Positions 1 through 38,142 of a DNA stretch of 64,000 nucleotides are shown one piece after another. The DNA lies in the sequence record PQ671644.1; one strand, written 5' to 3'. Every line of letters begins with the position of its first letter. Positions within the stretch are counted from its first letter, which is position 1. A program made the translations under genes and the position numbers. This DNA comes from Escherichia phage DCP80. The notes under the pieces are model-generated. The model was not told the origin of the DNA. It did not search any database and was given only the letters and a program-made list of their open reading frames with translations.

Positions 1-111
1 TGTTCATAATTTTCTCTTTGTGTTTGGTTGATATGATAATGATACACCCTTTTGATGAGGTTGTAAACCCCTTATTGCAAATACATCTGGCATTGAAACA
101 AATAAATGCCA
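1..111. repeat. Exact direct repeat of 30600-30710 (terminal overlap of block 1)
   Basis: Bases 1-111 match 30600-30710, which are followed directly by an N-run. Confidence 0.8.
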
Positions 112-198
112 AATGACAATTGGTAAAACACCAGATGATGAACTGCAACAAATGGTATCTGATTACAAGTGCTTGATTTATAACAAACAGGAAACACC

Positions 199-232
199 AG
201 GTACATCTGGCATTGAAACAAATAAATGCCAG
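199..232. repeat. Perfect hairpin, 12-bp stem ACATCTGGCATT/AATGCCAGATGT with 10-nt loop; partial copy at 84-112
   Basis: Read directly from sequence; not followed by a T-run. Confidence 0.7.
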
Positions 233-715
233 ATGTATGCCAAATGTAATTTCTGCGGACTGTTGATAGTAATTCTTGTTTAGAAAAAACCCATGCAGAT
301 TAATAGTTTAGAGAGCAAAAACAAGCCTTTCAAAAACAGTCACTCGGCTGCAAAACCCTTACTTAATAAGTCAACACCTGGTTCCGCCTTCGGCGTCACT
401 AATACTGCCACTCAATAAAAATCATAAGCGCAGCGACTAAGACAGGGCGTAGCCCGTGCCGAAGGCCTATTGCATGTACTAAGAACAATCAAAACAATAC
501 TGATTAATAATTGTAATGAGCCTTCGGCCACTCACTTCGTTCGTGATTATGATTTGATTAATTGATTACTAGATACAACTTGTATTGATAACAAATTGCT
601 TGTAGAATTGATTCTAAGAAGGTTTTAGATGAGACTAGTAGATTTTACTAGCATTAGAAGATTAGAAGCCCTACGGGCTCCGCAGGAGCTATATGATACT
701 AGTAAGAATCATCAA

Positions 716-1010
716 TACAATTATCATTCGCTTCGCTCATGAGTTTCACATTTTATCTTCTGTGATTGATTGTTCTTAGTAGTAATGAATCTTGTTAGAA
801 CCATTATAACATGTAAATCTTAAAGCAAATAACAAACGCTTTAAATCTTAGTAGTATTAATGAGAACAATTATCATTCGCTTCGCTCATGAGTTTTACAT
901 TTCTTTTTTGTTGATTTGTTAATGATGATTCTTAGTAACCTTGTAGAACCATTATAACATGTAATTTTTGAAGCAATAAAGATTGGATTGTTCTTAGTAG
1001 TATCAATTAG
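716..1010. repeat. Two diverged tandem copies of a ~150-bp unit (about 716-865 and 871-1010)
   Basis: Both copies share AATTATCATTCGCTTCGCTCATGAGTTT and GAACCATTATAACATGTAA blocks. Confidence 0.65.
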
Positions 1011-1259
1011 CACCTGCGGTGCGCCTTCGGCATAGAATTTTTAAAGTCAATTTTATTAGAAGTTTTTACAAGCTATTGATTTGATTAGTATTAATTAATC
1101 ATCTTGTGTTGAAATTGCTGTTGTAAGTTATTGATTTGATTGATGAATTTAAAAACTGATAAAAATATATCAAAAAGGTAAGACGTGTGTCTTAGTGTAC
1201 CAAAATGTGAAGGCCCGAAGGGACTGAACTGTCATCATGTTGTTGAAATTTGATGCTGT

Positions 1260-1267
1260 TATAAATA
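1260..1267 (+). promoter_or_regulatory. T4-type late promoter TATAAATA
   Basis: GTTATAAATAAATAAAAAGAGG then ATG at 1287. Confidence 0.6.
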
Positions 1268-1286
1268 AATAAAAAGAGGAAACACA

Positions 1287-1469: not shown

Positions 1470-1744
1470 AATTTTATATCTACGATTACAAAAACCAATT
1501 AAGAACCAACCAGATTGTTCGTACTGGTGATTTGAACCATCAGAACCCTAACGTTTATTCAATCAAGATATACGGTACGAAAACACAACTTGAACAAAAT
1601 CCGGACCAGCTAATCAAAGCTGCTCTGCGTCGTATCAGCGAACAATTCGTAGATACAACTTACATCATTCCTGAGGTTGAAATCCAGATAACTGGTGGAT
1701 TGAAATCTTATGCTGAAATTTTTGTGAGGACTTATGAACATTGA
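1466..1744 (+). CDS. Hypothetical protein upstream of terminase
   Basis: 92-aa ORF translationally coupled to flanking genes. Confidence 0.4.
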   Translation: MKFYIYDYKNQLRTNQIVRTGDLNHQNPNVYSIKIYGTKTQLEQNPDQLIKAALRRISEQFVDTTYIIPEVEIQITGGLKSYAEIFVRTYEH

Positions 1745-3716
1745 AGAAAATTTGAGTGTTGAATTCCCTGAAGAAGTTGAACAAGAACAATTCAACCCTG
1801 TAGTTGAACGTATGAAAATTAAAAACATAATCCAGAGAGTATCAAAGTATATCAAAGCTCCTGAAGTGTGTAAGCCATCAGAATGGGTTGAGCGTAATTT
1901 GTATTTCCCTGATGGTCCGATGGCTAACCAACCGATGAAGCTTGATAACTTCCAGAAGGGAATGATTGATTCCATCAACGAAGGCAAGGTTAAAATTATT
2001 TTCATGACCTCCGCACAGATAGGAAAGACAACTGTTCTTAATGGTATGTTGTTCTGGAAATCTGCAATCGAAGGTGGAAACGTTGGTATCGCACAGGCAA
2101 CAGGCAAGGAAGTGTCTAACTGGTTGAACAGTAAGATAAGACCAATGATTGAAGTCTCCCCTGTTATGAAAGACCTGGTTGCGTCAAAAGCTGACCGTGA
2201 TAAATCAAACAACGAATCACGTATCGACCTTATGAACGGTGGTACATGGTTCATGATGTCATTAGGTTCCCCTACGCACCTGCGTGGTAAGACATTACCA
2301 ATGATTCTGATGGACGAAGTTGAAGGCGCAGAAGAATCTGAAGAAGGTTCTCCTATTAACCTGGCTGCCAAACGTGCAACGACTTTCCAGGACGAAGCGA
2401 GATTGATTATTTGCTCAACGCCAAATACGAAGTACGGTCCTATCAATAAAGAATTCGAAGCTTCTGATAAACGATACTTCATGGTTGATTGCCCCCATTG
2501 TGGTCATAATCACAGGATTACGTTTAAAGAGTGTATTAAATTCAATATGATACGTGAACAAGGTAAAGAGATTCCTGATGTTGATTCAGCTGTTCAAATC
2601 TGTCCTTCATGTGAACAGACCATAACAGATATCCAACGTACACGTATGATTCATAACGGTAAATGGGTAGCAACTAATCCAAACTCAAGCTCCATTGGAT
2701 TCCATATCTCTGCTCTTTATTCTCCGCGAAACTCCGTAAAAGGAATCGTGGAAGAGTATAAACAAGCGAGAGCATCGTTTGATGTTAAAAGTTTTTACAA
2801 CACAGTTCTGGGTGAACCATGGTCTGACGGAAACGAAAACATTGAGCTGCATGTTATTGATTCATTAAGAGAACCTATTGGATTGGAAAACATACCTGAT
2901 GATGTGTTGTTCTTAACAGCGGGCGTTGACCAACAGAAAGACCGTTTAGAAATTACAATCTTCGGTCACACAAAACATAAGCTGTACGTATTATCACACA
3001 AATCCATCCACGGACAGAACCTTGAATTGCATAACGACCCGGCATACAAAGGACTATATAATTACATAAGATTACCGTTCACAACTTGTACAGGTCGTAA
3101 GTTGACATTAGCACGAGTTAACATGGACTCCGGTAACGGTCGAGCAACGAAGGTAATTTATTCTTTTGCGCAGAAATGGAACAATATAAAGCCTATCAAA
3201 GGTGCATCAAAAGTTGAAGCTCCGTTTATTCCACCAAAATCTTCAACATCAGGTGGTTATGAATTATGGATGATTGGTGTTAACGAAGGCAAAAACAAAG
3301 TTCGTGAAATTCTTGCATCAAACATAAATGAGGCTGATACTCCTGAACTGGAATTGTCATTGTCTGATGATTTACCTGATGATTATGCTGAACAGTTGTT
3401 ATCAGAAGAAGTTGTCAAATCTGGTACAGCCAGACGCTGGGTAATCAGAAAAGGTGGTGGCCGAAATGAGTGCCTTGATACGTTTGTTTACGGATTAGCT
3501 GCTAGATTTCAAGTACTTAATACAAGTAATTGGGGATTCTGGGAAAAACTGAAAGACAAGAATGAAAAAACTGAGCAAATATCTCAAGAAGAAATTGATG
3601 AATCGGTAGAAACAGGTGTTGTTAACTATGTTGATATTAAACCTGAGAAACCAAAAGTTCAAAGACCACAACGTCCGCAAAGACCAAGGCCAACAACACA
3701 AAGAAGGAGATTCTAA
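1734..3716 (+). CDS. Terminase large subunit, lambda gpA-like
   Basis: 660 aa; CPHCGH...CPSC zinc motif, TAGVDQQKDRLE nuclease region and C-terminal FVYGLAA recalled from lambda gpA. Confidence 0.8.
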   Translation: MNIEENLSVEFPEEVEQEQFNPVVERMKIKNIIQRVSKYIKAPEVCKPSEWVERNLYFPDGPMANQPMKLDNFQKGMIDSINEGKVKIIFMTSAQIGKTTVLNGMLFWKSAIEGGNVGIAQATGKEVSNWLNSKIRPMIEVSPVMKDLVASKADRDKSNNESRIDLMNGGTWFMMSLGSPTHLRGKTLPMILMDEVEGAEESEEGSPINLAAKRATTFQDEARLIICSTPNTKYGPINKEFEASDKRYFMVDCPHCGHNHRITFKECIKFNMIREQGKEIPDVDSAVQICPSCEQTITDIQRTRMIHNGKWVATNPNSSSIGFHISALYSPRNSVKGIVEEYKQARASFDVKSFYNTVLGEPWSDGNENIELHVIDSLREPIGLENIPDDVLFLTAGVDQQKDRLEITIFGHTKHKLYVLSHKSIHGQNLELHNDPAYKGLYNYIRLPFTTCTGRKLTLARVNMDSGNGRATKVIYSFAQKWNNIKPIKGASKVEAPFIPPKSSTSGGYELWMIGVNEGKNKVREILASNINEADTPELELSLSDDLPDDYAEQLLSEEVVKSGTARRWVIRKGGGRNECLDTFVYGLAARFQVLNTSNWGFWEKLKDKNEKTEQISQEEIDESVETGVVNYVDIKPEKPKVQRPQRPQRPRPTTQRRRF

Positions 3717-7954: not shown

Positions 7955-8350
7955 ATGGAAATAAAAGATTCATCTACAACCAAATTTGTCCAGGAAGCAG
8001 TATTGATTTCTAATAAATCATATGGTCAACGTCGTTTTAACAGTTTCACTCAGAAAGAACAATCATTGTTCACCAAAAAGATGGGGCTTAAAACACGTGT
8101 TAGAGATAACTTTGCACCTGAAACGATTGAAGAAATAAACGCAATCTGGCGTGAACAACGAGAAGACACCGACCTTTCTGTTGGTAGTATGATTTATATC
8201 TTGATAGACGAAGATGATTTCTTTTTCTGGCGCGAGTATGAATCACCTGAAGGAAAATGGTATAAAGCTGGTAATACCACCAAATCTTATAACGGTATGC
8301 TCCGTGTAGAATTATCAATAGGGGAAGCAGATGGCAAGTTCAATTATTAA
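7955..8350 (+). CDS. Hypothetical head-tail joining module protein
   Basis: 131-aa ORF with late promoter and SD GGAG. Confidence 0.35.
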   Translation: MEIKDSSTTKFVQEAVLISNKSYGQRRFNSFTQKEQSLFTKKMGLKTRVRDNFAPETIEEINAIWREQREDTDLSVGSMIYILIDEDDFFFWREYESPEGKWYKAGNTTKSYNGMLRVELSIGEADGKFNY

Positions 8351-8753
8351 TTATCCACCGTTGAGCGTTAAAAAAGGCCTCGAAACTGTTATGAAACAAA
8401 TTGGTATCAAAGTTAACGTTGATTCTTATAAAGCTGATGTTAATGATGAAATCCAAGGTGTAGTAATGGGAATTCAATCCGAGTATCAAGAGCCAACTCC
8501 TATGCAGAAACACCAATTTGTTGACCTGACAGTTAACGTTGGATTGTTTACCAAACGTGATGCATTGCTGTTAGCCGAAGCCGCTGAAGAAATTAAGAAA
8601 ATCGATTTTGCACAAAAACCTTATAATGATTTGGTTGATTTCAAAGTTAACCGCATGTGGGTGTCTTCTGATACGATTGATTTCAGCGAAACAGATTCCG
8701 ATGGTAACGTACAAGCGATAATCATTTTCAATATCCAATACCTCAAAATTTAA
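8331..8753 (+). CDS. Hypothetical head-tail joining module protein
   Basis: 140-aa ORF, coupled to neighbours. Confidence 0.35.
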   Translation: MASSIINYPPLSVKKGLETVMKQIGIKVNVDSYKADVNDEIQGVVMGIQSEYQEPTPMQKHQFVDLTVNVGLFTKRDALLLAEAAEEIKKIDFAQKPYNDLVDFKVNRMWVSSDTIDFSETDSDGNVQAIIIFNIQYLKI

Positions 8754-8759
8754 GGAGCT

Positions 8760-10859
8760 ATGATGGCTGAAGTTTTTGCAGGAACTAAAGTACGTATGGC
8801 TGTTAACGAAGACCTAACTTCTAACAGCCCTATGTACATTGACGCAGGGTATGTACCCTTAGATAATCTGGTTGCATTTCCAGAGATAACCACACAAACT
8901 GAAACATACAAAATGGAATCATATAACGAGGATTATGAGCGCGTTATATTAGGAGCATATGGTTCCGCCCCAGTTACAATCCAAGTTGCCGAAGTTGCCG
9001 ATGATGAAGCACAAGGTATCCTTGACAAGTATCTTAACTCAATGAAAATGTTACGATTCCGTATCATGTGGGTTGAAAAGGAATTACCTCCGGTTGAAGG
9101 TATGCCTGCTGAAGAACAATACAGTGGTCCAACTGCAATCTTTGATGCTTATGTGACTTCTACTCATCTGTCGGGTGGTGAAAACCAAACTGTTATTCGC
9201 AGTTATACATTATCCCCGTTTGGAAAAGTTACACGTGATGTAACAAACCTTGGTGAGTACGTTCGTCGTGGACAATATGGCGTAGGTGGTGGTACAACTG
9301 ATTATCCGGGCCCTACAGACACCAATAGTTATGAAGGTAACCGTTGGGTCAACCTGTCGGCAGCAAGCTCCCAGAACCCATTTGCGGACTCCACAGGGGC
9401 TATGACAGTACAATCAGGTGAGCAAGGTTGGGCATTAGTCGGTTCTTCAACTGGTAACATGATGCTCCGTGCCAGAAACCGTCAGCTATCACGTGTTGGT
9501 GAGTGGACCAAAATCTATACCTCCGCTGAACCACCTACTGCAGCTGAAATTGGTGCTATCCCAACAGTAGGTGATGCTTATGTACAAGGTAACTTGAAAG
9601 CAAACAGCTTCTACGTAACTGATACTGCTGGAACAACTATCACCACGCAGATTAACAAAGACGGTATCACCACTAACGTGTTGAAAATCACAGGCTCTGT
9701 TAACTCTCCTAACTCTAATATCAGCGGCACATCAACGCTTAATATTGTAACGGCGAATAAGTTAACTGCTCAGGAATTGATTTCTCCATTGGCTCGTATT
9801 GATACTGGTACAGTTACAACGTTGGGTTCAACTGATTTCACAGCTTTCGACGCAGTTGTTAATAACAAGTTGGTTGCGAAAGAAGCAGAGATTGATGATT
9901 TAACGATTAACACAAGATTCCACGTAGGTGCAGGTGCTTCGTTCCAGATTGCTGGTAACGTACAATCAGCAACTGTAACTGCAACGGATAAAGTTACAAC
10001 CAAGAACCTTGAAGTACAAGAGGTTGAAAAGGTTGGACAAGTTAACCCTAACCGTGTTTTTATTCACTCTGTAAATGAGACTCCAGAAGCATACGACTCC
10101 ATGAACACAGGTATATCGCCTAAGTTGTCGTTATCCCAAGCAGCAACATTAGTTGGATATGCAGGTGAATTTAAACCAGACGGCTCAACACTGAAAGCTT
10201 ACGAGTTTACAAACAACTTGCAACAGTTAGAAAATGCCAGAATTACCAACTTAACAGTTGTGAATGGAATTGGTGTTAATAACTTATCATTCAGTGGGGC
10301 AATCACAGCTGGTAATAGCGATGCTAAGATTTTGTTAGAAACTCCGGACCAAGTTATTGTCTCAAATGATGCAACTCCTGGAGTAGCTGCAGCTCACTGG
10401 ACTGAAATTCGAGCAGGTGTTATCTACATCGATGGTAAACCAATTTGGCACGATGGTAATATCCCTAACGTTGTACAAATGGGCGGTGTTCCATTAAATG
10501 GTAACTCAACAATAACTGGTGATGTAACTGTTAAAGGCCGTGTTTCTGCTGATTCAATGCGTGTCGGTCCAAACATTTTGATGACAACGGACCTTATAAA
10601 TATTGGTATCGGAACAATCAAAATCGGTGGACAAGAAATTTTCCATCCAGGTAACCCTCCAACTGCTGCACAATGTAAAGCTGTTCCATTAGCTGGTAAC
10701 TCGAGAATGGACGGTGAATTGACAGCTAACAAACTTTACGAGTACAACACTGTTACTTCTACACAAGAACGTGTTTTTAGCCCGTTAAACAGACCAACTG
10801 CAGCAAATGCCGGTGTTATGGTTCTGCTTGGTGACGTTATCGATTTTGGTTTAGAATAA
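8760..10859 (+). CDS. Tail-tube-like N-domain with long fibre-like repeat extension
   Basis: First ~100 aa paralogous to 13211..13705 (FAG, VP..FPE, Y.DNY motifs); C-terminus has repeated G/P/N-rich fibre motifs. Confidence 0.5.
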   Translation: MMAEVFAGTKVRMAVNEDLTSNSPMYIDAGYVPLDNLVAFPEITTQTETYKMESYNEDYERVILGAYGSAPVTIQVAEVADDEAQGILDKYLNSMKMLRFRIMWVEKELPPVEGMPAEEQYSGPTAIFDAYVTSTHLSGGENQTVIRSYTLSPFGKVTRDVTNLGEYVRRGQYGVGGGTTDYPGPTDTNSYEGNRWVNLSAASSQNPFADSTGAMTVQSGEQGWALVGSSTGNMMLRARNRQLSRVGEWTKIYTSAEPPTAAEIGAIPTVGDAYVQGNLKANSFYVTDTAGTTITTQINKDGITTNVLKITGSVNSPNSNISGTSTLNIVTANKLTAQELISPLARIDTGTVTTLGSTDFTAFDAVVNNKLVAKEAEIDDLTINTRFHVGAGASFQIAGNVQSATVTATDKVTTKNLEVQEVEKVGQVNPNRVFIHSVNETPEAYDSMNTGISPKLSLSQAATLVGYAGEFKPDGSTLKAYEFTNNLQQLENARITNLTVVNGIGVNNLSFSGAITAGNSDAKILLETPDQVIVSNDATPGVAAAHWTEIRAGVIYIDGKPIWHDGNIPNVVQMGGVPLNGNSTITGDVTVKGRVSADSMRVGPNILMTTDLINIGIGTIKIGGQEIFHPGNPPTAAQCKAVPLAGNSRMDGELTANKLYEYNTVTSTQERVFSPLNRPTAANAGVMVLLGDVIDFGLE

Positions 10860-22958: not shown

Positions 22959-23426
22959 ATGAAAGCAATAGAGTACAAACATATGTTATACGAAAGACAA
23001 CATGGAATTTGTCTGCTATGTAAACTTCCGCTTGAAGATGTTAAAAGTTCCCATCTAGACCACGACCACGCTTTAACAGGTCCTAATGCTGGATTCTGCC
23101 GAGGACTTCTATGTCCTAGTTGTAACGTCTTGGAAGGAACTTTGCTGCATAAATTCAACAGAAGTGGATTAAAAAGTAAAACAACCTTTACAGCTTATCT
23201 TAATAACCTGCTATCTTATTATGCAAATCCACTGCATGAAAAGATACACCCTAATTTTATTAGAGATAAGGTGAAGGCTGTTTCACGGATGAGCAATCAA
23301 AGTATCATAGCTGAAATTGAAAAACTGACCTTTAACCTCCCAGCTGATAAGTCAAAGAAAGGACTTGTCAGTTTCTATCGTAAGGCTCTTAAGAAGTCCC
23401 TGGAGGACGTATGTCTGCAAAGTTAA
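22959..23426 (+). CDS. 49: Endonuclease VII-like Holliday junction resolvase
   Basis: CLLC...HLDHDH...GLLCPSCN...HKFNRSGLK...IHPNF closely follows T4 gp49 as recalled. Confidence 0.8.
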   Translation: MKAIEYKHMLYERQHGICLLCKLPLEDVKSSHLDHDHALTGPNAGFCRGLLCPSCNVLEGTLLHKFNRSGLKSKTTFTAYLNNLLSYYANPLHEKIHPNFIRDKVKAVSRMSNQSIIAEIEKLTFNLPADKSKKGLVSFYRKALKKSLEDVCLQS

Positions 23427-24464: not shown

Positions 24465-24776
24465 TTAGTTGAGTTTTTTACAATTAGTTATCAATAAACC
24501 GTTGACATAGAATTCACGTTCCCCACCACGAATCCATGTACCATACATGATTCCATCTCGTTCACGTTTCAGAGCAGGGATTTTCTTCCCGTCGATTTCA
24601 ACAGAACTAGAGCGCAAAGGTGGTGAACGGAATTCCTCTGAACTGAAAGATTCGATAACTGTAACGAACTCCACTTTAATCTCAGGACTGTAACACTGGA
24701 ACTTTTGTACTTCCATTGCATAACTTGATGCAGAGATAAGAAGCAATGATGCGATGATTGTTTTTAAAGTTTTCAT
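24465..24776 (-). CDS. Secreted protein with signal peptide, opposite strand to late operon
   Basis: MKTLKTIIASLLLISASSYA signal-like N-terminus; SD GGAGA before ATG. Confidence 0.5.
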   Translation of the reverse strand: MKTLKTIIASLLLISASSYAMEVQKFQCYSPEIKVEFVTVIESFSSEEFRSPPLRSSSVEIDGKKIPALKRERDGIMYGTWIRGGEREFYVNGLLITNCKKLN

Positions 24777-24868
24777 ATAGTCTCCAAAGTAATAATCTTA
24801 TTTAGTGTTTCAATAGTATAAGATAAGTATAACACATAAATTCTAAAGCGTAAACCTAAGGAGGTTTT

Positions 24869-25333
24869 ATGTCAGAAGCTTTTAACATGCTGATGAAAGA
24901 TGAAGGCATCGAGTATCATCTTTATAAATGCACGCAAGGATACTGGACAATCGGGATTGGTCATATGATTTCCCGTGATAAACAAACAGCTGAACGATTC
25001 CTTAATGAGAAATTTGGGAAGTGTGTAATAAGTAAGGAGCAGGCTATCCAGTTGTTCAAGCAAGATTATAATCATGCAGTATTAGGTGCACAGAGTATCG
25101 TAAGATTAGACACCTACCGTGAATTAGCATTGTCTAATATGGTTTTCCAGATGGGACTTGGTGGTGTACTGAAGTTCAAGAAAATGATAGCTGCACTGAA
25201 GATACAAGACTGGAACGAAGCTTATAAGCAGGCTTTAGATTCTACATGGTATAAACAAACACCTAATCGTGCCAAACGTGTGGCCGAGGTACTAAGAGAT
25301 GGGAAACAAGCATATGTCAAACATTACTCCTGA
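24869..25333 (+). CDS. e: Lysozyme, T4 e-type (GH24)
   Basis: EG..Y.C..GYWTIGIGH, NMVFQMG and WYKQTPNRAKRV match T4 lysozyme motifs. Confidence 0.85.
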   Translation: MSEAFNMLMKDEGIEYHLYKCTQGYWTIGIGHMISRDKQTAERFLNEKFGKCVISKEQAIQLFKQDYNHAVLGAQSIVRLDTYRELALSNMVFQMGLGGVLKFKKMIAALKIQDWNEAYKQALDSTWYKQTPNRAKRVAEVLRDGKQAYVKHYS

Positions 25334-25526
25334 AATGATTGCTGAACTATACGTTGAGAATCATAACTTAAAGCGTCAATTCAAAGCTGCTAACGATTTC
25401 GTCGGGCAGGTAGCCATGGCTCTCCAGATGGATTCTGAAGACTCTATCGTAACTTATGAAGCATTGTCTAACAAGTTAGCTTCCGCGCTCGCCGGGGCCT
25501 CCCAGGGCGTCCAGGAAAAGCAATAG
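25299..25526 (+). CDS. Hypothetical protein
   Basis: 75-aa ORF overlapping lysozyme end; weak. Confidence 0.25.
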   Translation: MGNKHMSNITPEMIAELYVENHNLKRQFKAANDFVGQVAMALQMDSEDSIVTYEALSNKLASALAGASQGVQEKQ

Positions 25527-25534
25527 TTACTTTC

Positions 25535-25554
25535 CGGGGGCCCCCTCCCCGGGA
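25535..25554. promoter_or_regulatory. GC-rich near-dyad element CCGGGGGCCCCCTCCCCGGG, candidate cos nicking site
   Basis: Isolated GC-rich imperfect twofold symmetry in AT-rich region ~200 bp upstream of Nu1-like gene. Confidence 0.4.
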
Positions 25555-25759
25555 TGTTACGCCCACCCATTCTTCTGTTTACCAGAAATTTTTTTGGGAT
25601 AGCTAACACAACTTTATAATTATAAAATATTTTTTAAAATTAAAAATAGTTTTGAAAATAAATTTTGATTTTAAAATTAATTTTACAATTCATGAACTTA
25701 TAAGTTCTTAATTTCTAAAAGATTTTCAAGAGCTTTTCCAAAACTGATGAGGAATTAAA

Positions 25760-26251
25760 ATGTCAACCAAAGACCCGATTTATCTTAACCAAAAACAAAT
25801 CTCCGAATCCTACGGAGTTACGCGCCAGACGATTGCAGAGTGGCAGAAGCGTGAAAATCCAATTCCGTGGATTGCTGGACGGGGATATCCGATGCCTGAT
25901 GCCGGAGTTTGGATTGCAGAAAATTTTATAAAAACTTTAAGACAGAACAACGAAGCACAGGATTTTAATTATCACAAGACAAGGAAGATGGCAGCAGAAG
26001 CGGACATTGCTGAAAGGGAAAACATGCTCGAGGCGCAATCCGTTATCAGAACAGATTTCGTAGAAGAGGAGTTAAGGAATTTTGTTACAAGAGTTAAGGA
26101 AACCCTCCGCGTCATTCCATTGAAGTATGCAGAAGATATTGCTATAAGAGCAACAAGCACATCAGAAGTTAAGAAGGCATTAAGGGAAGCGATTGATAAA
26201 TCCCTGAACGAGATTGACCTGTTGATGTTGTTTGAAGAGCATGAAGAATAA
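25760..26251 (+). CDS. Terminase small subunit, lambda Nu1-like winged HTH
   Basis: KQISESYGVTRQTIAEWQKRE parallels Nu1 KQLADIFGASIRTIQNWQEQG; downstream coiled region matches Nu1 layout. Confidence 0.55.
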   Translation: MSTKDPIYLNQKQISESYGVTRQTIAEWQKRENPIPWIAGRGYPMPDAGVWIAENFIKTLRQNNEAQDFNYHKTRKMAAEADIAERENMLEAQSVIRTDFVEEELRNFVTRVKETLRVIPLKYAEDIAIRATSTSEVKKALREAIDKSLNEIDLLMLFEEHEE

Positions 26252-26281: not shown

Positions 26282-26298
26282 GGTCCCTTACGTCATTC
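26282..26298. terminator. Bidirectional terminator hairpin between convergent genes
   Basis: AAAAAA-GGGACCCGAAGGTCCC. Confidence 0.65.
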
Positions 26299-26532
26299 CC
26301 ACTTAATCGTTGCTACTCGCTCATACACGAGACGTAAATCAATCTTTCCTTTTACGGTATATGTTCTTTGAACTTCCCCTTGTGCTTCCACTGTGAGGCT
26401 ATCAATTAATTCATCGTTTTGATACAATCGATATAGGTTTTTCTGACGGTTTGAAATTGTTAAAGTACGTTGAACTTCTTCTTTAGTATCTTCCAATTTA
26501 TGGAGAGCTTTTAGACTAGTTGATTCGTACAT
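26293..26532 (-). CDS. Hypothetical protein
   Basis: 79-aa ORF. Confidence 0.4.
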   Translation of the reverse strand: MYESTSLKALHKLEDTKEEVQRTLTISNRQKNLYRLYQNDELIDSLTVEAQGEVQRTYTVKGKIDLRLVYERVATIKWE

Positions 26533-26563
26533 AGTTTTCCTTTTTAAAGGGGACCGAAGTCCC

Positions 26564-26890
26564 TTATGCGTATAAGTGTTTTTCTTTCTTACGAAGACAG
26601 TTTTCAGAAGCTGTCAGGAGCTGCAAGTTACTTGGAGCGTTGTTCTTGCGGTTAAAATCGATATGGTCAATGTGCATACCCTCAGGAACTTCAGAATCGT
26701 TATCAAGCATCCACACGATTCGGTGAGCATACTCGTTATTATGAACCGGGTGGAAAACATGGATATAACCAGAAGGTAATTCGTAACCAGCTTCTTTGCC
26801 AGCGTGCTTACCAGTGGTGTAAATCAGTTTGTCATCAACGATTGCATAGTGAGCTTTAACGATGTCGAGAGTAATTTTAGTACGTGCCAT
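26564..26890 (-). CDS. HNH endonuclease
   Basis: HIDHIDFNRKNNAPSNLQLLTASEN HNH motif. Confidence 0.7.
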   Translation of the reverse strand: MARTKITLDIVKAHYAIVDDKLIYTTGKHAGKEAGYELPSGYIHVFHPVHNNEYAHRIVWMLDNDSEVPEGMHIDHIDFNRKNNAPSNLQLLTASENCLRKKEKHLYA

Positions 26891-26908
26891 TTGATATACC
26901 TTTTAAAA

Positions 26909-26957
26909 ATGAAGCACCGGAATTGATGCTTCGCGTTTTCATACTTTTATTTATAAC
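26909..26957 (-). promoter_or_regulatory. Intergenic cassette: TATAAATA, then hairpin with loop TCAATTCCGG
   Basis: Minus-strand reading TATAAATAAAAGTATGAAAACGC-GAAGCA-TCAATTCCGG-TGCTTC-ATTTTT. Confidence 0.5.
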
Positions 26958-26969
26958 AGCTTTTCGGGC

Positions 26970-27152
26970 TTATTCAGAAGTCAGAATAAATTTTTGATAC
27001 TGTTTACCAGTTATCTTGTATCTGATGAAGTTGAACAAATCGAACAAATATCCAAGAGGAATCAGAGCAATCAGAAGTGGTGCCATGATGAACATCAGGA
27101 TTGCTTGGATAACAAACAGAATTGTTTCACCCAGAAATTTTAAAATAAACAT
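26970..27152 (-). CDS. Small membrane protein
   Basis: 60 aa, two hydrophobic segments. Confidence 0.4.
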   Translation of the reverse strand: MFILKFLGETILFVIQAILMFIMAPLLIALIPLGYLFDLFNFIRYKITGKQYQKFILTSE

Positions 27153-27185
27153 AGTTCTCCCGTTGGGGCCGAAGCCCCAGATAAG

Positions 27186-27401
27186 TTAGCGAATTGATTT
27201 TTGTTCTTTAGCGCGATTCTTAATACCAAGTCCTTGCATCGTGGCTTCGATAACCTCGATTGCTTTAACACGTTTTTCATACTCTGCCAGAGTGATTTGT
27301 TTTTTGGCGAATTGTACATAAAGGGCAGACATAGCTTCGTAACTGTTCATAGGATTTCTCTTTAAAGGGAGACACCGGAATTGATGTCTCGTTGTTTTCA
27401 T
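27186..27401 (-). CDS. Hypothetical small protein (true start probably the internal ATG near 27347)
   Basis: Track start lies inside the TATAAATA motif; internal ATG has SD AAAGAG. Confidence 0.35.
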   Translation of the reverse strand: MKTTRHQFRCLPLKRNPMNSYEAMSALYVQFAKKQITLAEYEKRVKAIEVIEATMQGLGIKNRAKEQKSIR

Positions 27402-27418
27402 ACATTTATTTATAACGG
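27369..27418 (-). promoter_or_regulatory. Intergenic cassette: TATAAATA, then hairpin with same loop and covarying stem
   Basis: Stem GAGACA/TGTCTC versus GAAGCA/TGCTTC in the 26909 copy; loop TCAATTCCGG identical. Confidence 0.5.
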
Positions 27419-27422
27419 TCTT

Positions 27423-27713
27423 TTAACGCTTTTTAAAACCACCGAAGAAGGTGCCAGATAATGATTGAGCGATTTTAGAAGCTTCATAGTTGTTTGATTC
27501 AACTTCACCATACTTCCAACCTTTACCAAGGAGTTTCAACCATTTCAATCTAGCGATTGTCACATCATGACCTGCGCAAAGGAGTTCAAATTCTTCCAGT
27601 TCATCATTAAGTAGATAAGCAAGTTTTTCTTTATCCACAGCGTATGTCCAATTGGTACCTTCGAATTCGAAGAAAACTGAATCACCGTGGGTTTCTACAT
27701 TTTTAATCTTCAT
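27423..27713 (-). CDS. Hypothetical protein
   Basis: 96-aa ORF. Confidence 0.4.
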   Translation of the reverse strand: MKIKNVETHGDSVFFEFEGTNWTYAVDKEKLAYLLNDELEEFELLCAGHDVTIARLKWLKLLGKGWKYGEVESNNYEASKIAQSLSGTFFGGFKKR

Positions 27714-27904
27714 TAGATTTCCTTTACAATAAATTTATAAGTTACTTGGGACTCTTTAAAGACAGCTTCCGTTGCCCATTCTTCAGGTTTTTTCGAAAGC
27801 TCTGTGTGATAAAGCATTGCAGCTTCACCCTCTTGTGCTTCCAAAGCTTCTATGTAGCTTCGGCCTTCTTTAAGTTTAATAACACCGCAATCTATGATTC
27901 TCAT
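27713..27904 (-). CDS. Hypothetical protein
   Basis: 63-aa ORF. Confidence 0.35.
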   Translation of the reverse strand: MRIIDCGVIKLKEGRSYIEALEAQEGEAAMLYHTELSKKPEEWATEAVFKESQVTYKFIVKEI

Positions 27905-28215
27905 TTCTTGTCCAGTAGTTGTTGGTAAAATTCGATATGAGCATAAACATCTTGAATCCCGTGTAGGTAATCATCAAAGGTGATGTCCAGGTCTTCAAAG
28001 AAGTTATGATAAATTTCTTGTAGTTTGGTATAACCGTTTTCGTTAGTCATAAGTACCTCGTTGTTTTCATAATTTTATTTATACTGATTAATACTGGTTT
28101 AAATGGCGCCACAACGTGGTTCTGGATATACTATGTTTCTTCAGAACAGATTTCTTATCTTTACGACGAGCATTTTTATACTCGTCTGCAATTTGATTTA
28201 ACTTCTCGTTGGTCA

Positions 28216-28947
28216 TTAAAATTTTACGCATAACAGGTTGTCCAGTTGGTCTTCATGGGTTTCGATTAAGATTTCAGATTCCAGAGCTTCAGCAGCCTGA
28301 ATCATTGTGGCAGTATCACCACCAGCTTTAGCAACGTGAATCACAGTATCGAATTTACGTTTGTAAAGATTTTTCAGTTTAACTTCTTTAGTTTTCTGTG
28401 CAAAGTGTTTTTCAGATTTACGTTTAACTTCAACCAGTTCTTCTTTAACAACTTCAACTTCTTCTTCAGCTTCCTGGATAGCAACGTTTGCTTTCTTCAG
28501 AGCAGCATGTTGTGCACGAATGATTTCCATCATTTCTTCCACAGATAATTCCTCAAGATTGTTGATGTCAAATTTGACAACTTCTTTCTTTTCAACATGG
28601 TGATTAGAATTAACGGTATCGATTTCGTAAATCCAAGTTTTGTCACCGCGACGAGTCATTTCCAGGTTCTGCTGGATATAACCTTTACCTACTTTGTGAA
28701 TCACACGAGCTGAATTCCAATCAGTATGAACTACACAGATTGAATTTTCAAATTCTGCAACAAAGTAATCTCCCTCACCAAAATCAACTGCTTTAGCTTT
28801 AACTGCACGATACAGAGAACGATTAGCTGAACCAATTTCTTGTAACAAAGATTTAACAGAACTAGCATGAATTACTTTGGTTGCATTTTGTACAGACATG
28901 TTGCTTTCAGCTTGGTTTTCGCATTTTTTAAAAAGTTTGATAATCAT
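28216..28947 (-). CDS. Hypothetical protein with C-terminal charged coiled coil
   Basis: 243-aa ORF, no family recognised. Confidence 0.45.
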   Translation of the reverse strand: MIIKLFKKCENQAESNMSVQNATKVIHASSVKSLLQEIGSANRSLYRAVKAKAVDFGEGDYFVAEFENSICVVHTDWNSARVIHKVGKGYIQQNLEMTRRGDKTWIYEIDTVNSNHHVEKKEVVKFDINNLEELSVEEMMEIIRAQHAALKKANVAIQEAEEEVEVVKEELVEVKRKSEKHFAQKTKEVKLKNLYKRKFDTVIHVAKAGGDTATMIQAAEALESEILIETHEDQLDNLLCVKF

Positions 28948-29772
28948 GTGTTTTCCTTTATTTGTTAATCGTGTTATTATTTAGAATTAAAAAGTGATGT
29001 GTAATTCTTTGTTGATTTCAAAGATGACAGTTGCTAATGTCAAGTTGTGTTCTTTACACCAATCAGCACGTTTAGCCGGTGGCAATTTGTTTAACGCACA
29101 GAAGATTTTCATTAATTTAATCTGATAAGAATTCATGGTGACCTCAAGTGTTTCGATGTTTGTTAGGGTTTAAAAAAGAGGTTGTTCACCTCGTCGCTTT
29201 CATACATTTATTTATACACTAATTTTCGGCTCATTAGACAATCAGAAAAGTTCAATCCGGATTCAATCGCGTCAGGAGAATTTCCATGATAATATTTATC
29301 TCTTTATACTCACAAAAAACATTGAAACACATTTTGCAGTTTTTGGACTTTTAATCAAAAAAGGCTGTTTTTGATATTTCCGGGGGGTGCCTATGCCTTC
29401 CGGAGCACTTTTTGAGGCAAAAGTTATAAGAAACCTATTTTAATATATCAAAAGGTAATAACAAAGGCCTTTTTTCCCTCAAAAAACGTCAGAAAAAGGC
29501 TGTTTTTTCAGCTTATTTTGAGCCTTTTTTGAAGGTTCATTTTTGGGACTTTTAATCAAAAAACAAGGGAATTTTTCGGGAGCAGTACAGGGGTACTATC
29601 AGATGATAGGAGCTATCATTTAGAAGGGAGAATTGTGATTACTTATGACCGTTATACGATTGTATCGCGATTATTTGGTCAAATAACGACGAAATAATCA
29701 AAATAAATCATCGAAACACTTAGAAAACAGGCTGTTTTAGGTATAAAAATGGCCCCTTTCGGAGCCTAAAAT

Positions 29773-29979
29773 TTATTTCATACGCAGGTATTTTTCATAA
29801 CTAACTTTTGACAGAGCCAAATAGTAAGCTGCATCTTTTTCTCCCGATAATTTACCTTCAGCAACTGTTGCACAATCTTCTTTGAAAGTTGCTTCCCAGG
29901 AAAATCCATCAAGCCAATCGGAAAATTGTTGTTCGTTCATATTAACCTCTGTAATGTCTGTTGTAATGGTGTACTGCAA
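29773..29979 (-). CDS. Hypothetical protein
   Basis: 68-aa ORF. Confidence 0.35.
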   Translation of the reverse strand: MQYTITTDITEVNMNEQQFSDWLDGFSWEATFKEDCATVAEGKLSGEKDAAYYLALSKVSYEKYLRMK

Positions 29980-30288
29980 TTTCTGTGCAAAGGTCTTCGA
30001 AGACCAATGGGATTATGTTTTCTCGGTAGACAACATAACTGTACTGTCTGTAGGTGTAGACCTCTTTATATTTCTCGAAGAACATAAACAGGTCTTGATT
30101 AGCTGTAACTTCTAACGGGGTGATTTTCCCGGCTGCATCAACTATCATACTTCCTCCTTATTAACTTAATAATAGGCTCCCGCTCAGAAACCTATGATAA
30201 GGTACCACACATGAATTTAATCAAAGGTCTTCACATCACTAAAGACCTTTTGTTAAACACATGAATCAGGTCATCACTCCTGATACTT

Positions 30289-30609
30289 TTATTTATAACG
30301 GGATTTATTCATCCATTCAAATATGCCAGGGTTCCATTCGATGTTACCCATCGCTACATAATGATTGATTGCTTCTCGCAGAGACACCTGGAAGAATTCG
30401 GATTCGTCAAGTAATGAAACAATGATTTCCCCTTGTGCCTGTAAATCATCAACTGTCATCATGGAAAGAATTTCATATGCTGATTGAATTTCGTCTTCTG
30501 TGAAATCTGTGTCGAACCAATCATTAAGGTTATCATCAGATTTGTAATTATTGTAATAAGCCATACCTTCGATAACCAGATTGATAATTTCATTTACGTT
30601 GTTCATAAT
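30289..30609 (-). CDS. Hypothetical acidic protein
   Basis: ~106 aa from ATG near 30609; track ORF 30289..30768 reads through the N-run. Confidence 0.4.
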   Translation of the reverse strand: MMNNVNEIINLVIEGMAYYNNYKSDDNLNDWFDTDFTEDEIQSAYEILSMMTVDDLQAQGEIIVSLLDESEFFQVSLREAINHYVAMGNIEWNPGIFEWMNKSRYK

Positions 30610-30710
30610 TTTCTCTTTGTGTTTGGTTGATATGATAATGATACACCCTTTTGATGAGGTTGTAAACCCCTTATTGCAAATACATCTGGCATTGAAACAA
30701 ATAAATGCCA

Positions 30711-30720
30711 NNNNNNNNNN
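30711..30720. other. Assembly gap (N10), scaffold joint
   Basis: Run of N after the repeated terminal 111 bp. Confidence 0.9.
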
Positions 30721-34776: not shown

Positions 34777-34979
34777 TGCTTAGCTCCATTCCAAATTACA
34801 TCAACAACAGACTTCAAACCATTATCCTGGATTTGTGTGAATACTTCAGCAGCAATCCAGACCTGGAAACCAATCATTGCAATGGCACCAATGAAAATCA
34901 GGATAATCATTGCCACAATAAACTTGAACATAAAGTCAAAGCGACGATTGGATTTCTGAAAGTGTGAATTGTAATTCAT
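34773..34979 (-). CDS. Small membrane protein
   Basis: Start moved to internal Met MNYNSHF; homolog truncated by gap at 49790. Confidence 0.4.
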   Translation of the reverse strand: MNYNSHFQKSNRRFDFMFKFIVAMIILIFIGAIAMIGFQVWIAAEVFTQIQDNGLKSVVDVIWNGAKQ

Positions 34980-35132
34980 AATATTATCCTCAAAAGAAAT
35001 AGTTAAAGTAAACACGTACATGGTCAATCATAAAAATAATTGGGAAAATGCTCAGGACAACAAACAATACAAACATGTTCCAAATGGCTTTAAGTAACTT
35101 TTTCATAATCATCTCCAGTAGTTGATAGGTTC

Positions 35133-35161
35133 ATTATACTACAACCACCGGAGATGTACAC
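35133..35161 (-). promoter_or_regulatory. Sigma70-type early promoter (-35 GTGTACA, -10 TATAAT) with conserved leader CTATCAACTACTGGAG
   Basis: Minus-strand AAAAGAGTGTACA-16 nt-TATAAT; same cassette recurs at many minus-strand genes. Confidence 0.55.
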
Positions 35162-35251
35162 TCTTTTATGCAAGTTTCATTAATAATAAACTAAAACAAA
35201 CGCAAATTACTGGAATACACAACATCCAGATAAGACACCAGGTTTTGCTGC

Positions 35252-35518
35252 TCAAAATATCACCTCTTTTATTTCAATCAGACCCCTGTGCAATGCGGTG
35301 CGAAGGTCATAAAGAATATCTATGCCATCAACATTATCCAGTTTTCCATCAATAAGCTTTTTTAAATCATGCTTTGATGCAACTAGCGGGCGAAGAAATT
35401 TACATTCAGAAAGAGACAATTCTGTAGTAATATCATCACCATCACCTGACGCATCATACATGGCAGCAACAACCATACCTGTAACTTTGTGCTTGGCGTA
35501 ATATAATTTAATATCCAT
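35252..35518 (-). CDS. Hypothetical protein, member of small paralog family
   Basis: MDIKLYYAKHKVTG; paralogs at 48689 and 48949. Confidence 0.4.
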   Translation of the reverse strand: MDIKLYYAKHKVTGMVVAAMYDASGDGDDITTELSLSECKFLRPLVASKHDLKKLIDGKLDNVDGIDILYDLRTALHRGLIEIKEVIF

Positions 35519-35762
35519 TCTGTTTTCCTCACGCATAACGATTGTATGTATTTTTACGACAAGCGTAAAATTGACGCTCAGTAACTGCAAAACTTTTTCC
35601 GCGTTGTTGCATTAATTTAAAAAATTCAGTAATATCGCCATTAACTTCAAGGTATAAAGTCATTGCATATTGAGCAGGTTTCATTTTATTCTCCAGTCTG
35701 TTTGGTAACTCAGTATGGAATCATTATGCACTGACTCCATACTGATGTACACTACTTTTTAA

Positions 35763-36038
35763 TTAATTGTGCATTTGTTCTTTAACTTCTTTATATGCGC
35801 CAACTGCATTCACGACCCCAGTAAAATCTGCAGTCCCACGATAGAGATAGAAAGCAATTTCAGTCAGGTGGTAGACTTCAAATTCTGAAAGATAAACGAT
35901 AACGTCATAATATGCAACTTGACCCTGGACTTCGTTGAATGCCACATCAAAAATTTCATGGGTTGGAAAATTGATGTTGTTGTTTTTGAGTGCTTGGATA
36001 AGAATTTGTTTGATGTTGTGAGTAGTAACGTGTTCCAT
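35763..36038 (-). CDS. Hypothetical protein
   Basis: Start set at MEHVTTH after promoter cassette. Confidence 0.4.
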   Translation of the reverse strand: MEHVTTHNIKQILIQALKNNNINFPTHEIFDVAFNEVQGQVAYYDVIVYLSEFEVYHLTEIAFYLYRGTADFTGVVNAVGAYKEVKEQMHN

Positions 36039-36085
36039 GATAATGTCCTCATTTGTTGGTATGAGGACATTATTACACGGTTGGT

Positions 36086-36679
36086 TCAGCTTGTAAACCG
36101 GTGATAGGGAAATTTTTCTTCTGAACAAGAACGGAGGTACCAGCCATCCCCTTGTGACTTCTGCACAAGACCAGACTCAGGAACGAAAGCACCAGGCCCA
36201 GCAAGGAATTTTGGTTTAAATCTATAACCTTTGAGAGTCTCTTTTACATCGAGCATAATCATAAGGTCAGCAAGCTTGTGCTGCATAAAAGGACCAAGAT
36301 TAATCCCGTAACCATGCGGATAATCGCCCTGGTGGCCAGTGTGTACGGATATCCATTTGGAACCAGACTGGTGGGTCTTGACTTCGATTCTTACCCCTTC
36401 CTTCGAAACTACATCAAATGCAAAGGAATAAGGATTATCGTAATCTTCGTCGCCGCCACATAAAAAACCAGAAGTCCATTTAGCAATAGCTTGTTCAGCC
36501 ATTGTAGCAACCATGCATCTTTGCATGACTTGCTCACGGTCCTGACCTGGGTCTTTACGCAATGAATACCGGGTAGTGTCTACAATCTTCTGCAGGGATT
36601 CGGGGTTTAAGTCTTCCTTTGTATAAAGAAAGGAGGGCATCTTTTTCAGATGCTCCCAGGTTTTACTCTTCTGAATCAT
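36086..36679 (-). CDS. denB: Endonuclease IV DenB-like
   Basis: AIAKW, YDNPY, FAFDV.SKEG.RIEVK.HQSGSKWI and GLVQKS.G.GWYLR resemble T4 DenB; sits between rIIB and ndd as in T4. Confidence 0.6.
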   Translation of the reverse strand: MIQKSKTWEHLKKMPSFLYTKEDLNPESLQKIVDTTRYSLRKDPGQDREQVMQRCMVATMAEQAIAKWTSGFLCGGDEDYDNPYSFAFDVVSKEGVRIEVKTHQSGSKWISVHTGHQGDYPHGYGINLGPFMQHKLADLMIMLDVKETLKGYRFKPKFLAGPGAFVPESGLVQKSQGDGWYLRSCSEEKFPYHRFTS

Positions 36680-36932
36680 TTACGACCTCATCGATACCGA
36701 CGATTCCACGGATGTGAAGCTCACCATAATACAAACGGTCATTAGCATCAAATGTATCAGAATCCGGGTCAGGGAATTCCCCAACAACTACTTCATCACA
36801 TTCCAACCAACCATAGTGAACATCACCTTCATGCTTGATGAGCTTACCGCAGTAAACTATTCCTGCATAATGATGACCCCGGAGATTTGAAACTTTGATG
36901 TCACGGTCTGACACATTGAAATGCTTAATCAT
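36663..36932 (-). CDS. Hypothetical protein
   Basis: 89-aa ORF. Confidence 0.4.
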   Translation of the reverse strand: MIKHFNVSDRDIKVSNLRGHHYAGIVYCGKLIKHEGDVHYGWLECDEVVVGEFPDPDSDTFDANDRLYYGELHIRGIVGIDEVVNDSEE

Positions 36933-36935
36933 AAT

Positions 36936-37133
36936 TTATTCACCAAAATAAGAGATACGAGTTGCCAGTACATGAGCATAAGCGCCCATCGCGTCTAACT
37001 GTGCAATCAAAAGACCTTGTTGACGAGCATCGAGAGTTTCAAAAACACCGCCCTTAATAAATTCTTCAAGAGCATTGATTTTCAAAACCAGCTGGTCATG
37101 TTCTTCAACTACACGTGCTTGGAAACCTAACAT
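36936..37133 (-). CDS. Hypothetical protein
   Basis: 65-aa ORF. Confidence 0.4.
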   Translation of the reverse strand: MLGFQARVVEEHDQLVLKINALEEFIKGGVFETLDARQQGLLIAQLDAMGAYAHVLATRISYFGE

Positions 37134-37146
37134 AAAGCCTCATTAG

Positions 37147-37160: not shown

Positions 37161-37166
37161 ATTAAT

Positions 37167-38141: not shown

Positions 38142-38142
38142 A

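Follow-up and report, generated by a model that had tools for sequence, protein, structure and literature searches.

A gene-free stretch with T4-type middle promoters and GNA mini-hairpins as a candidate replication origin of a lambda-like element

The phage T4 origins oriF and oriG are about 100 bp long each and consist of a MotA-dependent promoter with an A+T-rich element downstream; their transcript forms an R-loop and primes the leading strand, the displaced strand admits the primosome, plasmids bearing such a segment replicate in infected cells, and T4 origins are located where transcription diverges (PMC3016281). Stable DNA mini-hairpins of the form GCGNAGC have a GNA loop and a C-G closing pair, and the ssiA site of plasmid RSF1010 carries a GNA mini-hairpin, CCGAAGG (PMC13037366). 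Here we analysed a gene-free stretch of about 1.2 kb that has features of both designs, located in a 30.6-kb lambda-like element (segment 1) of sequence record PQ671644.1 from Escherichia phage DCP80; "the window" means the whole 64,000 nucleotides that were analysed. In our estimate it is an even call whether this stretch serves as control region and replication origin, with priming by R-loops and hairpin signals on single strands. On this reading it would have five components: an ancestral core, a repeat cluster, IHF sites, two T4-type R-loop units added in the clade of the window, and flanking divergent early and late promoters. The region would then vary on known origin designs; it has no sequence match in phage, plasmid or E. 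coli collections (positions 27-81 apart, see below) or in Rfam.

Two middle-promoter units compared with T4 oriF and oriG

Promoters were assigned to the T4 early, middle and late classes using published definitions (PMC6024815, PMC1524935), the MotA promoter consensus being (a/t)3TGCTTtA-N11-13-TataAT (PMC1524935). A preliminary description of the same DNA, made from its letters and a list of its open reading frames (ORFs), had found no ORF of 60 amino acids or more and had placed the stretch between divergent promoters. Both statements held, the first for positions 8-1286, and the promoters and units are listed below (relatives carry L numbers).

68-39, minus strand: T4 early-type (strong sigma-70) promoter GTTTACA-N17-TATCAT, driving the leftward 105-amino-acid gene
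700-848, minus strand: tandem unit 1, with a hairpin at 750-724
827-803, minus strand: MotA-type middle promoter TGCTTTA-N12-TATAAT of unit 1, predicted start about 796
849-997, minus strand: tandem unit 2, with the same hairpin at 899-873
975-951, minus strand: MotA-type middle promoter TGCTTCA-N12-TATAAT of unit 2, predicted start about 944
1260-1267, plus strand: T4 late-type promoter TATAAATA, 20 nt before the first rightward gene, kept in L002 and L003
1274-1282, plus strand: ribosome-binding site AAGAGGAAA of the first rightward gene
1287, plus strand: ATG of the first rightward gene

We read both minus-strand promoters of the units as T4 MotA-type middle promoters and predict that they depend on MotA and AsiA. 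Their MotA boxes (tattTGCTTTA at 827 and ttatTGCTTCA at 975, minus strand, for an expected centre near -30) are separated by 12 bp, inside the 11-13 bp of the consensus, from a perfect TATAAT, a spacing also found in L001, L002 and L003; box and -10 are kept in these three relatives and the 12-nt spacer changes. TGCTTYA-N12-TATAAT was matched seven times in the window for 0.41 expected, twice in the region and five times in the T4-like segments, and no plausible ORF lies downstream of either middle promoter.

The units have a period of 148-149 nt and an overall identity of 71%, with blocks of 79% and 91%, and were not called by Tandem Repeats Finder. They are the two diverged units of about 150 bp previously placed at 716-1010, which are real at the shifted coordinates given above; the units are carriers of two MotA-type middle promoters and not simple iterons. 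After the predicted start, unit 1 continues with 45-50 nt of A-rich DNA (50% A, 28% G+C) and unit 2 with A-rich DNA of 56% A and 24% G+C, followed in each case by GTGAAAC and a hairpin reading TCAT-GA-GCGAAGC-GA-ATGA on the minus strand, whose internal loop is TC/TC on the plus strand and tandem G.A on the minus strand. Duplex stability of the DNA downstream of the middle promoters gave z of +1.5 to +2.2; the minimum of the genome lies elsewhere. Two candidates at this place were rejected: GTTTCAC, which adjoins the unit hairpin, fits by eye neither the DnaA-box nor the primase-site consensus, and a short ORF in the unit hairpin (MSEANDNC...) is without a ribosome-binding site and absent from L001.

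This arrangement is like that of T4 oriF (uvsY) and oriG (gene 34) in that a MotA-type middle promoter is directly followed by A+T-rich DNA (24-28% G+C in the first 50 nt), no specific downstream sequence is needed, the location is at a transcription strand switch, and the displaced non-template strand is the proposed entry for the primosome (PMC3016281). Unlike in T4, there are two tandem copies of the promoter unit, both ending in a GCGAAGC mini-hairpin on the strand expected to be displaced, and the units adjoin a hairpin/AT-spacer/hairpin core and a repeat cluster. The carrier also differs, being a lambda-like element in which T4 replication genes were undetected, and the likeness is one of sequence parts, with the R-loop predicted.

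The same promoters might simply express the leftward genes towards which they are directed, beginning with the 105-amino-acid gene, by way of a long leader with structure; in that case the hairpins would be RNA stability, processing or anti-termination elements, the 11-bp repeats described below would be operators, and there would be no origin. The right-half hairpins do lie within the predicted RNA, and tandem G.A pairs are stable in RNA too. The T4 oriF promoter itself doubles as the uvsY gene promoter, so middle promoters before genes are ordinary (PMC3016281). However, the two promoters are 790-940 nt away from the first gene, which has its own early promoter at 68-39, two inverted repeats with 13-bp stems stand in between, each leftward gene has its own TATAAATA promoter, and the element's real terminators are UUCG tetraloops followed by T-runs. 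We regard a purely transcriptional role as unlikely.

Alternatively, the middle promoters could make one or more trans-acting non-coding RNAs, reaching to the large hairpins and directed at the helper phage or the host, for example. This would suit two promoters without a downstream ORF, and the minus strand of 650-944, which has a folding z of -4.1 against -2.8 for the plus strand. It would also suit the outer stem of the unit hairpin, which changes from TCAT/ATGA in the window to CCT/AGG (L001), TTCGT/ACGAA (L002) and ACACAT/ATGTGT (prophages L022 and L025) with the internal loop retained. The comparison with relatives, proposed at the outset as a check for compensatory changes, has another side: outside the promoter boxes and hairpins the sequence is poorly conserved, even at 72-89% identity of the large terminase (TerL), which counts against such an RNA, as does the lack of an intrinsic terminator after the units. 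Nor were the small structured RNAs suggested in the preliminary description recovered as any known family, since Rfam 15 gave zero matches at the gathering score over the whole window and, by E-value in 1-1500, only chance-level small nucleolar RNA and microRNA matches (E above 1), and ARAGORN found no tRNA. We consider a trans-acting RNA quite improbable.

The late-type promoter TATAAATA was counted 17 times in the window, for 3.8 expected. Of these copies 16 are in segment 1, where the rightward genes contain 11, all on the plus strand, and the leftward genes five, all on the minus strand (for example at 7931, 13165, 13736 and 18212, plus; at 26955, 27414, 28083, 29216 and 30297, minus). Intergenic copies are on the same strand as genes and upstream of them, and several abut UUCG-tetraloop terminators, which leaves no space for a -35 element. 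The early promoter at 68-39 is about 81% identical, by eye, to an early promoter at 59343 (minus strand) in a T4-like segment, and intergenic DNA of VR7-type phages matches positions 27-81 at 85% identity. When the region was compared by megablast and blastn with phage, plasmid and complete E. coli sequences, only these positions gave a match, and sequence similarity to T4-type phages is confined to them. Positions 27-115 also resemble the "promoter-early stem-loop" cassettes of T4-type phages that Arbiol et al. reportedly described in 2010, in that a stem-loop adjoins a strong T4 early-type promoter; the differences are that this likeness covers only the left 115 nt of the region and that the stem-loop is built from a repeated 11-bp motif.

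All promoters of the element being of phage T4 type suggests that it depends on a T4-like phage. As far as sequence comparison reaches, this wiring is specific to the clade of the window. We dropped TATAAATA as a family-wide trait, as it is enriched only in that clade with no excess in the prophage relatives (TerL about 50% identical), and likewise the MotA-type promoters, matches to which are carried only by that clade and L015. Neither sigma-70 nor terminator scans did better on the region, or on two prophage stretches, than on shuffled sequences.

Two further observations concern promoters elsewhere in the element. A T4 early-type promoter, GTTTAC-N17-TATACT (24825-24855, minus strand), is located inside the late gene block, upstream of that block's only leftward ORF (24465-24776, 103 amino acids, no family match). 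At 26900-26955 and 27360-27414 (minus strand), late promoters are followed within 5 nt by ATGAAAAC..., so that the small genes look leaderless; next comes a hairpin with a conserved loop TCAATTCCGG and covarying stems, GAAGCA/TGCTTC versus GAGACA/TGTCTC.

GNA mini-hairpins and a hairpin/spacer/hairpin core

In RSF1010, the ssiA and ssiB hairpins are inverted on opposite strands, each located 5' of a single-stranded stretch for outward synthesis (PMC13037366). A core with this geometry was found left of the units:

428-466, plus strand: core left arm, three GNA mini-hairpins (GCGCAGC, GGGCGTAGCCC and GCCGAAGGC)
467-519: core spacer, 53 bp, 75% A+T, dyad centre, candidate unwinding element
520-528, minus strand: core right arm, GCCGAAGGC on the minus strand, forming with its flanks a 25-nt inverted repeat with 458-482

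The hairpins stand 5' of the spacer on each strand, so that synthesis templated on a melted spacer would run outward through them, and the later hairpins right of the core are mostly GNA on the minus strand. This polarity (plus-strand GNA on the left, minus-strand GNA on the right) was found in 20 of 22 sequences and reversed in none, with 62-120 bp from hairpin start to hairpin start in the relatives, and almost all relatives with a TerL identity of at least 42% have an ORF-free stretch of 1.1-1.7 kb with the core. E. coli, Enterobacter and Citrobacter prophages some 30 kb long (TerL about 52% identical) have the same kind of gene-free hairpin stretch (L004 1485-2594; L006 1581-2891; L007 19981-21161), which in several prophage relatives also ends with a plus-strand GNA hairpin, and no replication gene was recognised in these prophages. 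The core is also present in a divergent T4-like contig with distant baseplate-hub genes, L118, as TGGCGAAGCCA, about 70 nt and CGGGCTTCGCCCG; its gene-free stretch (8235-9497, 1.26 kb) is ACTAG-rich, contains a perfect MotA-type promoter (9389) and is followed at 9498-10759 by homologues of the element's 49- and 243-amino-acid genes.

The prophage stretches each have their own repeat family at the left end, e.g. AGACCTTAAT-like in L006 and GCATCGCAAA in L004. L007, the sole annotated example of these prophages, is located beside a serine recombinase gene next to ybiT.

Five short GC stems without T-runs had been named in the preliminary description; all five are present, together with others, and none is followed by a T-run:

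381-399, minus strand: GTGA-CGCC-GAA-GGCG-GAAC, GAA triloop, tandem G.A mismatches flanking the stem
385-395: CGCCTTCGGCG, GC stem
428-434, plus strand: GCGCAGC, GNA loop
445-455, plus strand: GGGCGTAGCCC, GNA loop, identical in prophage relatives L004 and L025
458-466, plus strand: GCCGAAGGC, GNA loop
520-528 and 1023-1031: GCCTTCGGC, GC stem, reading GCCGAAGGC on the minus strand at 520-528
667-679: AGCCCTACGGGCT = AGCCC-TAC-GGGCT, GTA loop on the minus strand, overlapping the next hairpin
677-689: GCTCCGCAGGAGC = GCTCC-GCA-GGAGC, GCA loop on the plus strand
within 724-742 and 873-891: GCTTCGC, GCGAAGC on the minus strand
1010-1022: GCACCTGCGGTGC = GCACC-TGC-GGTGC, loop GCA on the minus strand, kept in L003
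1023-1031: GCC-TTC-GGC (GCCTTCGGC), adjoining the 1010-1022 hairpin, loop GAA on the minus strand, kept in L003
1212-1224, plus strand: GGCCCGAAGGGAC = GGCCC-GAA-GGGAC, with GGGC-TGC-GCCC at the same place in L002

All-GC triloop hairpins reach 7.7 per kb in the stretch compared with 0.55 per kb in the remainder of segment 1 (14-fold), and their loops are GNA or TNC in 7 of 9 cases in the stretch compared with 1 of 16 elsewhere in the segment. Across 27 relatives, such loops were counted in 72 of the 117 hairpins of gene-free stretches and in 33 of the 278 outside, the latter being the chance rate. At least two G-C pairs, a C-G closing pair and a G-N-A loop are found together in GCGCAGC, GGGCGTAGCCC, GCCGAAGGC and, twice on the minus strand, GCGAAGC. 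Where a GNA-oriented hairpin has a 2x2 internal loop inside its stem, this loop is tandem GA/GA in 10 of 13 distinct cases. Since GNA loops and tandem GA/GA stabilise one strand only, the GNA strand would be the functional strand, and we predict from these strand-specific rules that the GNA hairpins fold as single strands in the cell. RNA folding z-scores were dropped as a strand test, the strands being not clearly separated.

These hairpins bear on both RNA-based explanations given above. A structured leader would not account for the left-arm hairpins (428-466, GNA on plus), for which no rightward promoter was found, nor for a dyad polarity that is kept in relatives without the middle promoters, nor for loops that obey the DNA rule C-GNA-G and are not stable RNA tetraloops. 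For a trans-acting RNA, the left-arm hairpins are on the opposite strand, and a one-strand GNA rule with a polarity switch suits a two-strand DNA element better than a single RNA. A leader or a non-coding RNA is possible for the right half of the stretch; the left-arm hairpins and the polarity rule are explained by neither.

With RSF1010 (IncQ) oriV the region has in common repeats and an AT-rich segment with GC-rich hairpins, including a CCGAAGG-type GNA cap. Opposite-strand hairpins and the AT-rich spacer are present here too, but the repeats are inverted pairs and not direct iterons, there are several variable-stem hairpins per arm, the region has no similarity to any plasmid, and homologues of the RepA helicase, RepB' primase and RepC initiator were not detected among 20 element proteins searched against PHROGs, ten of them also against Pfam. 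The primase sites of G4, St-1 and alpha3 likewise have stable GCGNAGC or GCGNNAGC mini-hairpins at a single-stranded priming site (PMC13037366), and their hairpin geometry relative to synthesis matches the core. They differ in serving as origins for phages with single-stranded DNA and in having three defined hairpins; the genome here is double-stranded, and its hairpins, for which a priming role is predicted, are triloops on both strands.

Hairpins with 3-nt loops also serve phage N4, whose promoters bear GGA or GAA loops (PMC13037366). Were the mini-hairpins N4-type single-stranded promoters, a polymerase that we did not recognise would read them on the template strand, divergently from the core. 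The shape is similar, with 3-nt GNA loops on stems of 3-5 bp (5-7 bp in N4), and outward transcription would on either side have the GNA strand as its template. N4 promoters are however served by a phage-encoded virion RNA polymerase, and neither this type nor any other polymerase gene was seen in the element, whose largest ORF (1266 amino acids) lies among the tail genes; moreover, the stems differ freely in sequence, and the hairpins are not followed by a conserved start motif. We give this explanation hardly any weight.

Repeat cluster, IHF sites and a possible mode of initiation

The remaining features of the stretch are repeats, IHF-consensus matches and one short ORF:

83-93 (plus), 106-116 (minus), 203-213 (plus), 226-236 (minus) and 237-247 (minus): five copies of ACATYTGGCAT, forming a cluster at 82-248
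113-283, plus strand: 56-codon Cys-rich ORF, the longest of the stretch
166-178: IHF-consensus match
1069-1081 and 1124-1136, minus strand: IHF-consensus matches, conserved in L002 and L003
1070-1086 and 1125-1141: ATTGATTTGATT motif, AAG(C/T)TATTGATTTGATT, with a weaker copy at 550-567

Both large hairpins (82-115 and 202-237) are inverted pairs of ACATYTGGCAT. The one previously placed at 199-232 is real, with a stem that is actually 13 bp (202-214/225-237) and a 10-nt loop, and its partial copy, given as 84-112, extends over 82-115 (34 nt, 97%). Their imperfect stem pairs, which read on the plus strand are C.A in copy 1 and, in five other samples, T.G in copy 2, favour opposite strands, which argues for double-stranded sites and against a strand-specific hairpin; a role as strand-specific terminators was dropped for this reason. 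The 11-bp repeats are probably protein-binding sites (operator or iteron), and we predict that they bind a lineage-specific regulator or initiator. At the equivalent place L001, which has different neighbouring genes, carries five direct GGTAYAGTYT repeats, and no copy of ACATYTGGCAT was found in the T4-like segments of the window.

The Cys-rich ORF noted earlier exists and is probably non-coding: six sampled variants show 12 substitutions in it, of which two, six and four affect codon positions 1, 2 and 3, third-position bias was not seen, and no ribosome-binding site is visible upstream.

Three ATTGATTTGATT motifs had been reported, of which two are 94% alike and the third is weaker. The two match the IHF consensus and, with the match at 166-178, bring to three of nine the IHF-consensus matches of the window that are located in the region. 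The region's most AT-rich part is 1032-1210, in which 1049-1098 and 1124-1173 rank 5th and 7th among the least stable segments of the 30.6-kb element.

IHF-consensus sites are typical of lambda cosB, and the stretch is directly upstream of the TerL operon, as might be expected if it were the packaging recognition site (cos or pac) of a lambda-type terminase with hairpins and IHF sites as cosB; a packaging region had indeed been one of the functions first suggested. A lambda-type cos adjoins the Nu1 gene and has a GC-rich nicking site and an AT-rich binding region. The Nu1-like gene of the element (25760-26251) is 5 kb off around the circle and has its own conserved block directly upstream, GC-rich at 25480-25570 and then the most AT-rich of the element at 25600-25720. 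We retained as the cos candidate 25480-25759 (L001 3020-3227), consisting of a GC-rich block ccgggggccccctccccggg followed by AT-rich DNA, with flanks ATAGTTACTTT and GATGTTACGCCCAC conserved in L001; because of this better candidate, a packaging site in the stretch is very doubtful. In addition, the gene-free stretch of the prophage relatives is 3.4-4.5 kb from TerL, and the contig ends of L002, L003 and L103-107, which fall inside a 31-nt exact repeat of the units, are repeat-induced assembly breaks.

If the stretch is an origin, infection by a T4-like phage would lead MotA/AsiA-modified RNA polymerase to fire the two middle promoters, and the A-rich transcripts would stay on the template as R-loops, as at T4 oriF and oriG, where their RNA would prime leftward DNA synthesis. 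The displaced minus strand would fold into stable GNA mini-hairpins (GCGAAGC, with flanking tandem G.A pairs), which may hold the bubble open and mark helicase or primase loading sites for the second fork. The core, which is common to temperate relatives without T4-type promoters, would probably act as paired opposite-strand single-strand initiation signals comparable to RSF1010 ssiA/ssiB. In this scheme the promoters, the hairpin rules and their conservation are read from the sequences, from which we infer R-loop formation, priming and origin activity. The genome being circular, an origin must be somewhere in the element, and the context of the proposal includes that no replication gene was recognised among the 20 element proteins.

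Several points weigh against an origin. It is the best-supported of the functions put forward in the preliminary description, and yet we infer it from the architecture only, the region having no similarity to any phage or plasmid origin. The element's most AT-rich DNA is elsewhere (25613-25717). The right-half hairpins are also in predicted RNA, which leaves room for an RNA role, and folding energy does not discriminate DNA from RNA function, as both strands fold well compared with shuffled sequences (z of -2.8 to -4.1 for 650-944 and about -2.9 for 370-660). Both middle promoters have an extended -10, TGtTATAAT, so that host sigma-70 might fire them without MotA. Finally, the MotA-type promoter of L118 is directed away from the hairpin core, and the link between promoter and core is thus not universal.

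The lambda-like element and its T4-like company

The window is a scaffold of six pieces separated by N-runs (30711-30720, 40994-41040, 49791-49800, 56743-56760 and 62887-62940). We read segment 1 (1-30710) as a circular lambda-like element of about 30.6 kb because its 111-nt ends are identical (1-111 and 30600-30710) and two lines of evidence confirm the junction: the relative L001 (TerL 72% identical), a single 31.6-kb contig, has the same gene order across it, and five other samples yielded five contigs that extend from the small terminase gene, by way of the 105-amino-acid gene, into 739 nt matching window positions 8-746 at 98.0-98.7%. No close relative of the clade was found in IMG/VR or JGI metagenomes; close relatives are confined to short contigs of Logan or ENA, broken within the 31-nt exact repeat of the units. 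The recognised genes of segment 1 include a portal, a protease-capsid fusion and tail genes, in addition to the following:

1734-3716: lambda-type large terminase (TerL)
22959-23426: endonuclease VII
24869-25333: lysozyme
25760-26251: Nu1-like small terminase
26293-30606, leftward: small genes including an HNH endonuclease
30292-30606, leftward: 105-amino-acid gene, across the circular junction, ATG at position 7

Homing-endonuclease genes vary between relatives: L001 has a GIY-YIG gene (8797-9516, probable from its N-terminal sequence), with the gene-free stretch on one side and the small genes that precede TerL on the other, and in the window an HNH gene (26564-26890) is found among the leftward genes. 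A second ORF-poor stretch spans 28948-30288, especially the minus strand of 29170-29216, where the TATAAATA promoter at 29216 is followed after about 20 nt by GAGGT-gaaca-ACCTC and a T-run; an attenuator or a very short RNA is conceivable here.

Segments 2-6, which are pieces of a T4-like myovirus, share 96-97% identity with Dhakavirus phages (SP18 and UPEC01, for example) and encode rIIA/B, topoisomerase II, gp46/47, gp45, gp44, gp41 and UvsX. Pieces 2 and 3 (34833-40993 versus 42925-49790) are inverted copies of 91-99% identity spanning rIIA, rIIB and neighbours, probably two strain variants of a T4-like phage that were mis-scaffolded. Besides the early promoter, a second short sequence is common to both segment types, a 42-nt element with hairpin GGGGCCGAAGCCCC (27148-27189 in the lambda-like element and 37129-37170 in a T4-like segment, 71% identity). 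A look-up of samples by the gp45 protein gave no overlap with the element's samples among the ten places listed (the longest 24 contigs, of 98 index blocks).

The 20 element proteins gave no PHROGs match to MotA, AsiA, gp55, gp33 or any replication protein, the ten scanned against Pfam gave no transcription-factor or replication match there, and the window contains no motA or asiA gene. By these sequence statistics, a lambda-like element wired entirely with T4-type promoters and co-scaffolded with Dhakavirus fragments is more surprising than the region itself. No description of a satellite or parasite of T-even phages was found in the literature.

Tentatively, and at somewhat less than even chances, we propose that segment 1 is a hyperparasite of T-even phages, which has a full lambda-like set of head, tail and packaging genes and T4 early, middle and late promoters, and in which transcription-factor and replication genes of its own were undetected. 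The region would then be an origin that borrows the modified polymerase and replisome of the helper, and the core an undescribed and widespread origin module of temperate Enterobacteriaceae phages and at least one T4-like phage. If true, this would be the first sequence-level picture of a lambda-like element replicating and timing its genes via the machinery of a T4-like phage. It would also provide a simple searchable DNA module, opposite-strand GNA mini-hairpins around an AT-rich spacer, which would mark the large stretch devoid of genes in a whole family of Enterobacteriaceae prophages, some 30 kb long and without a recognised replication gene, and the long-discussed role of GNA mini-hairpins at replication starts would become testable in a natural double-stranded phage genome.

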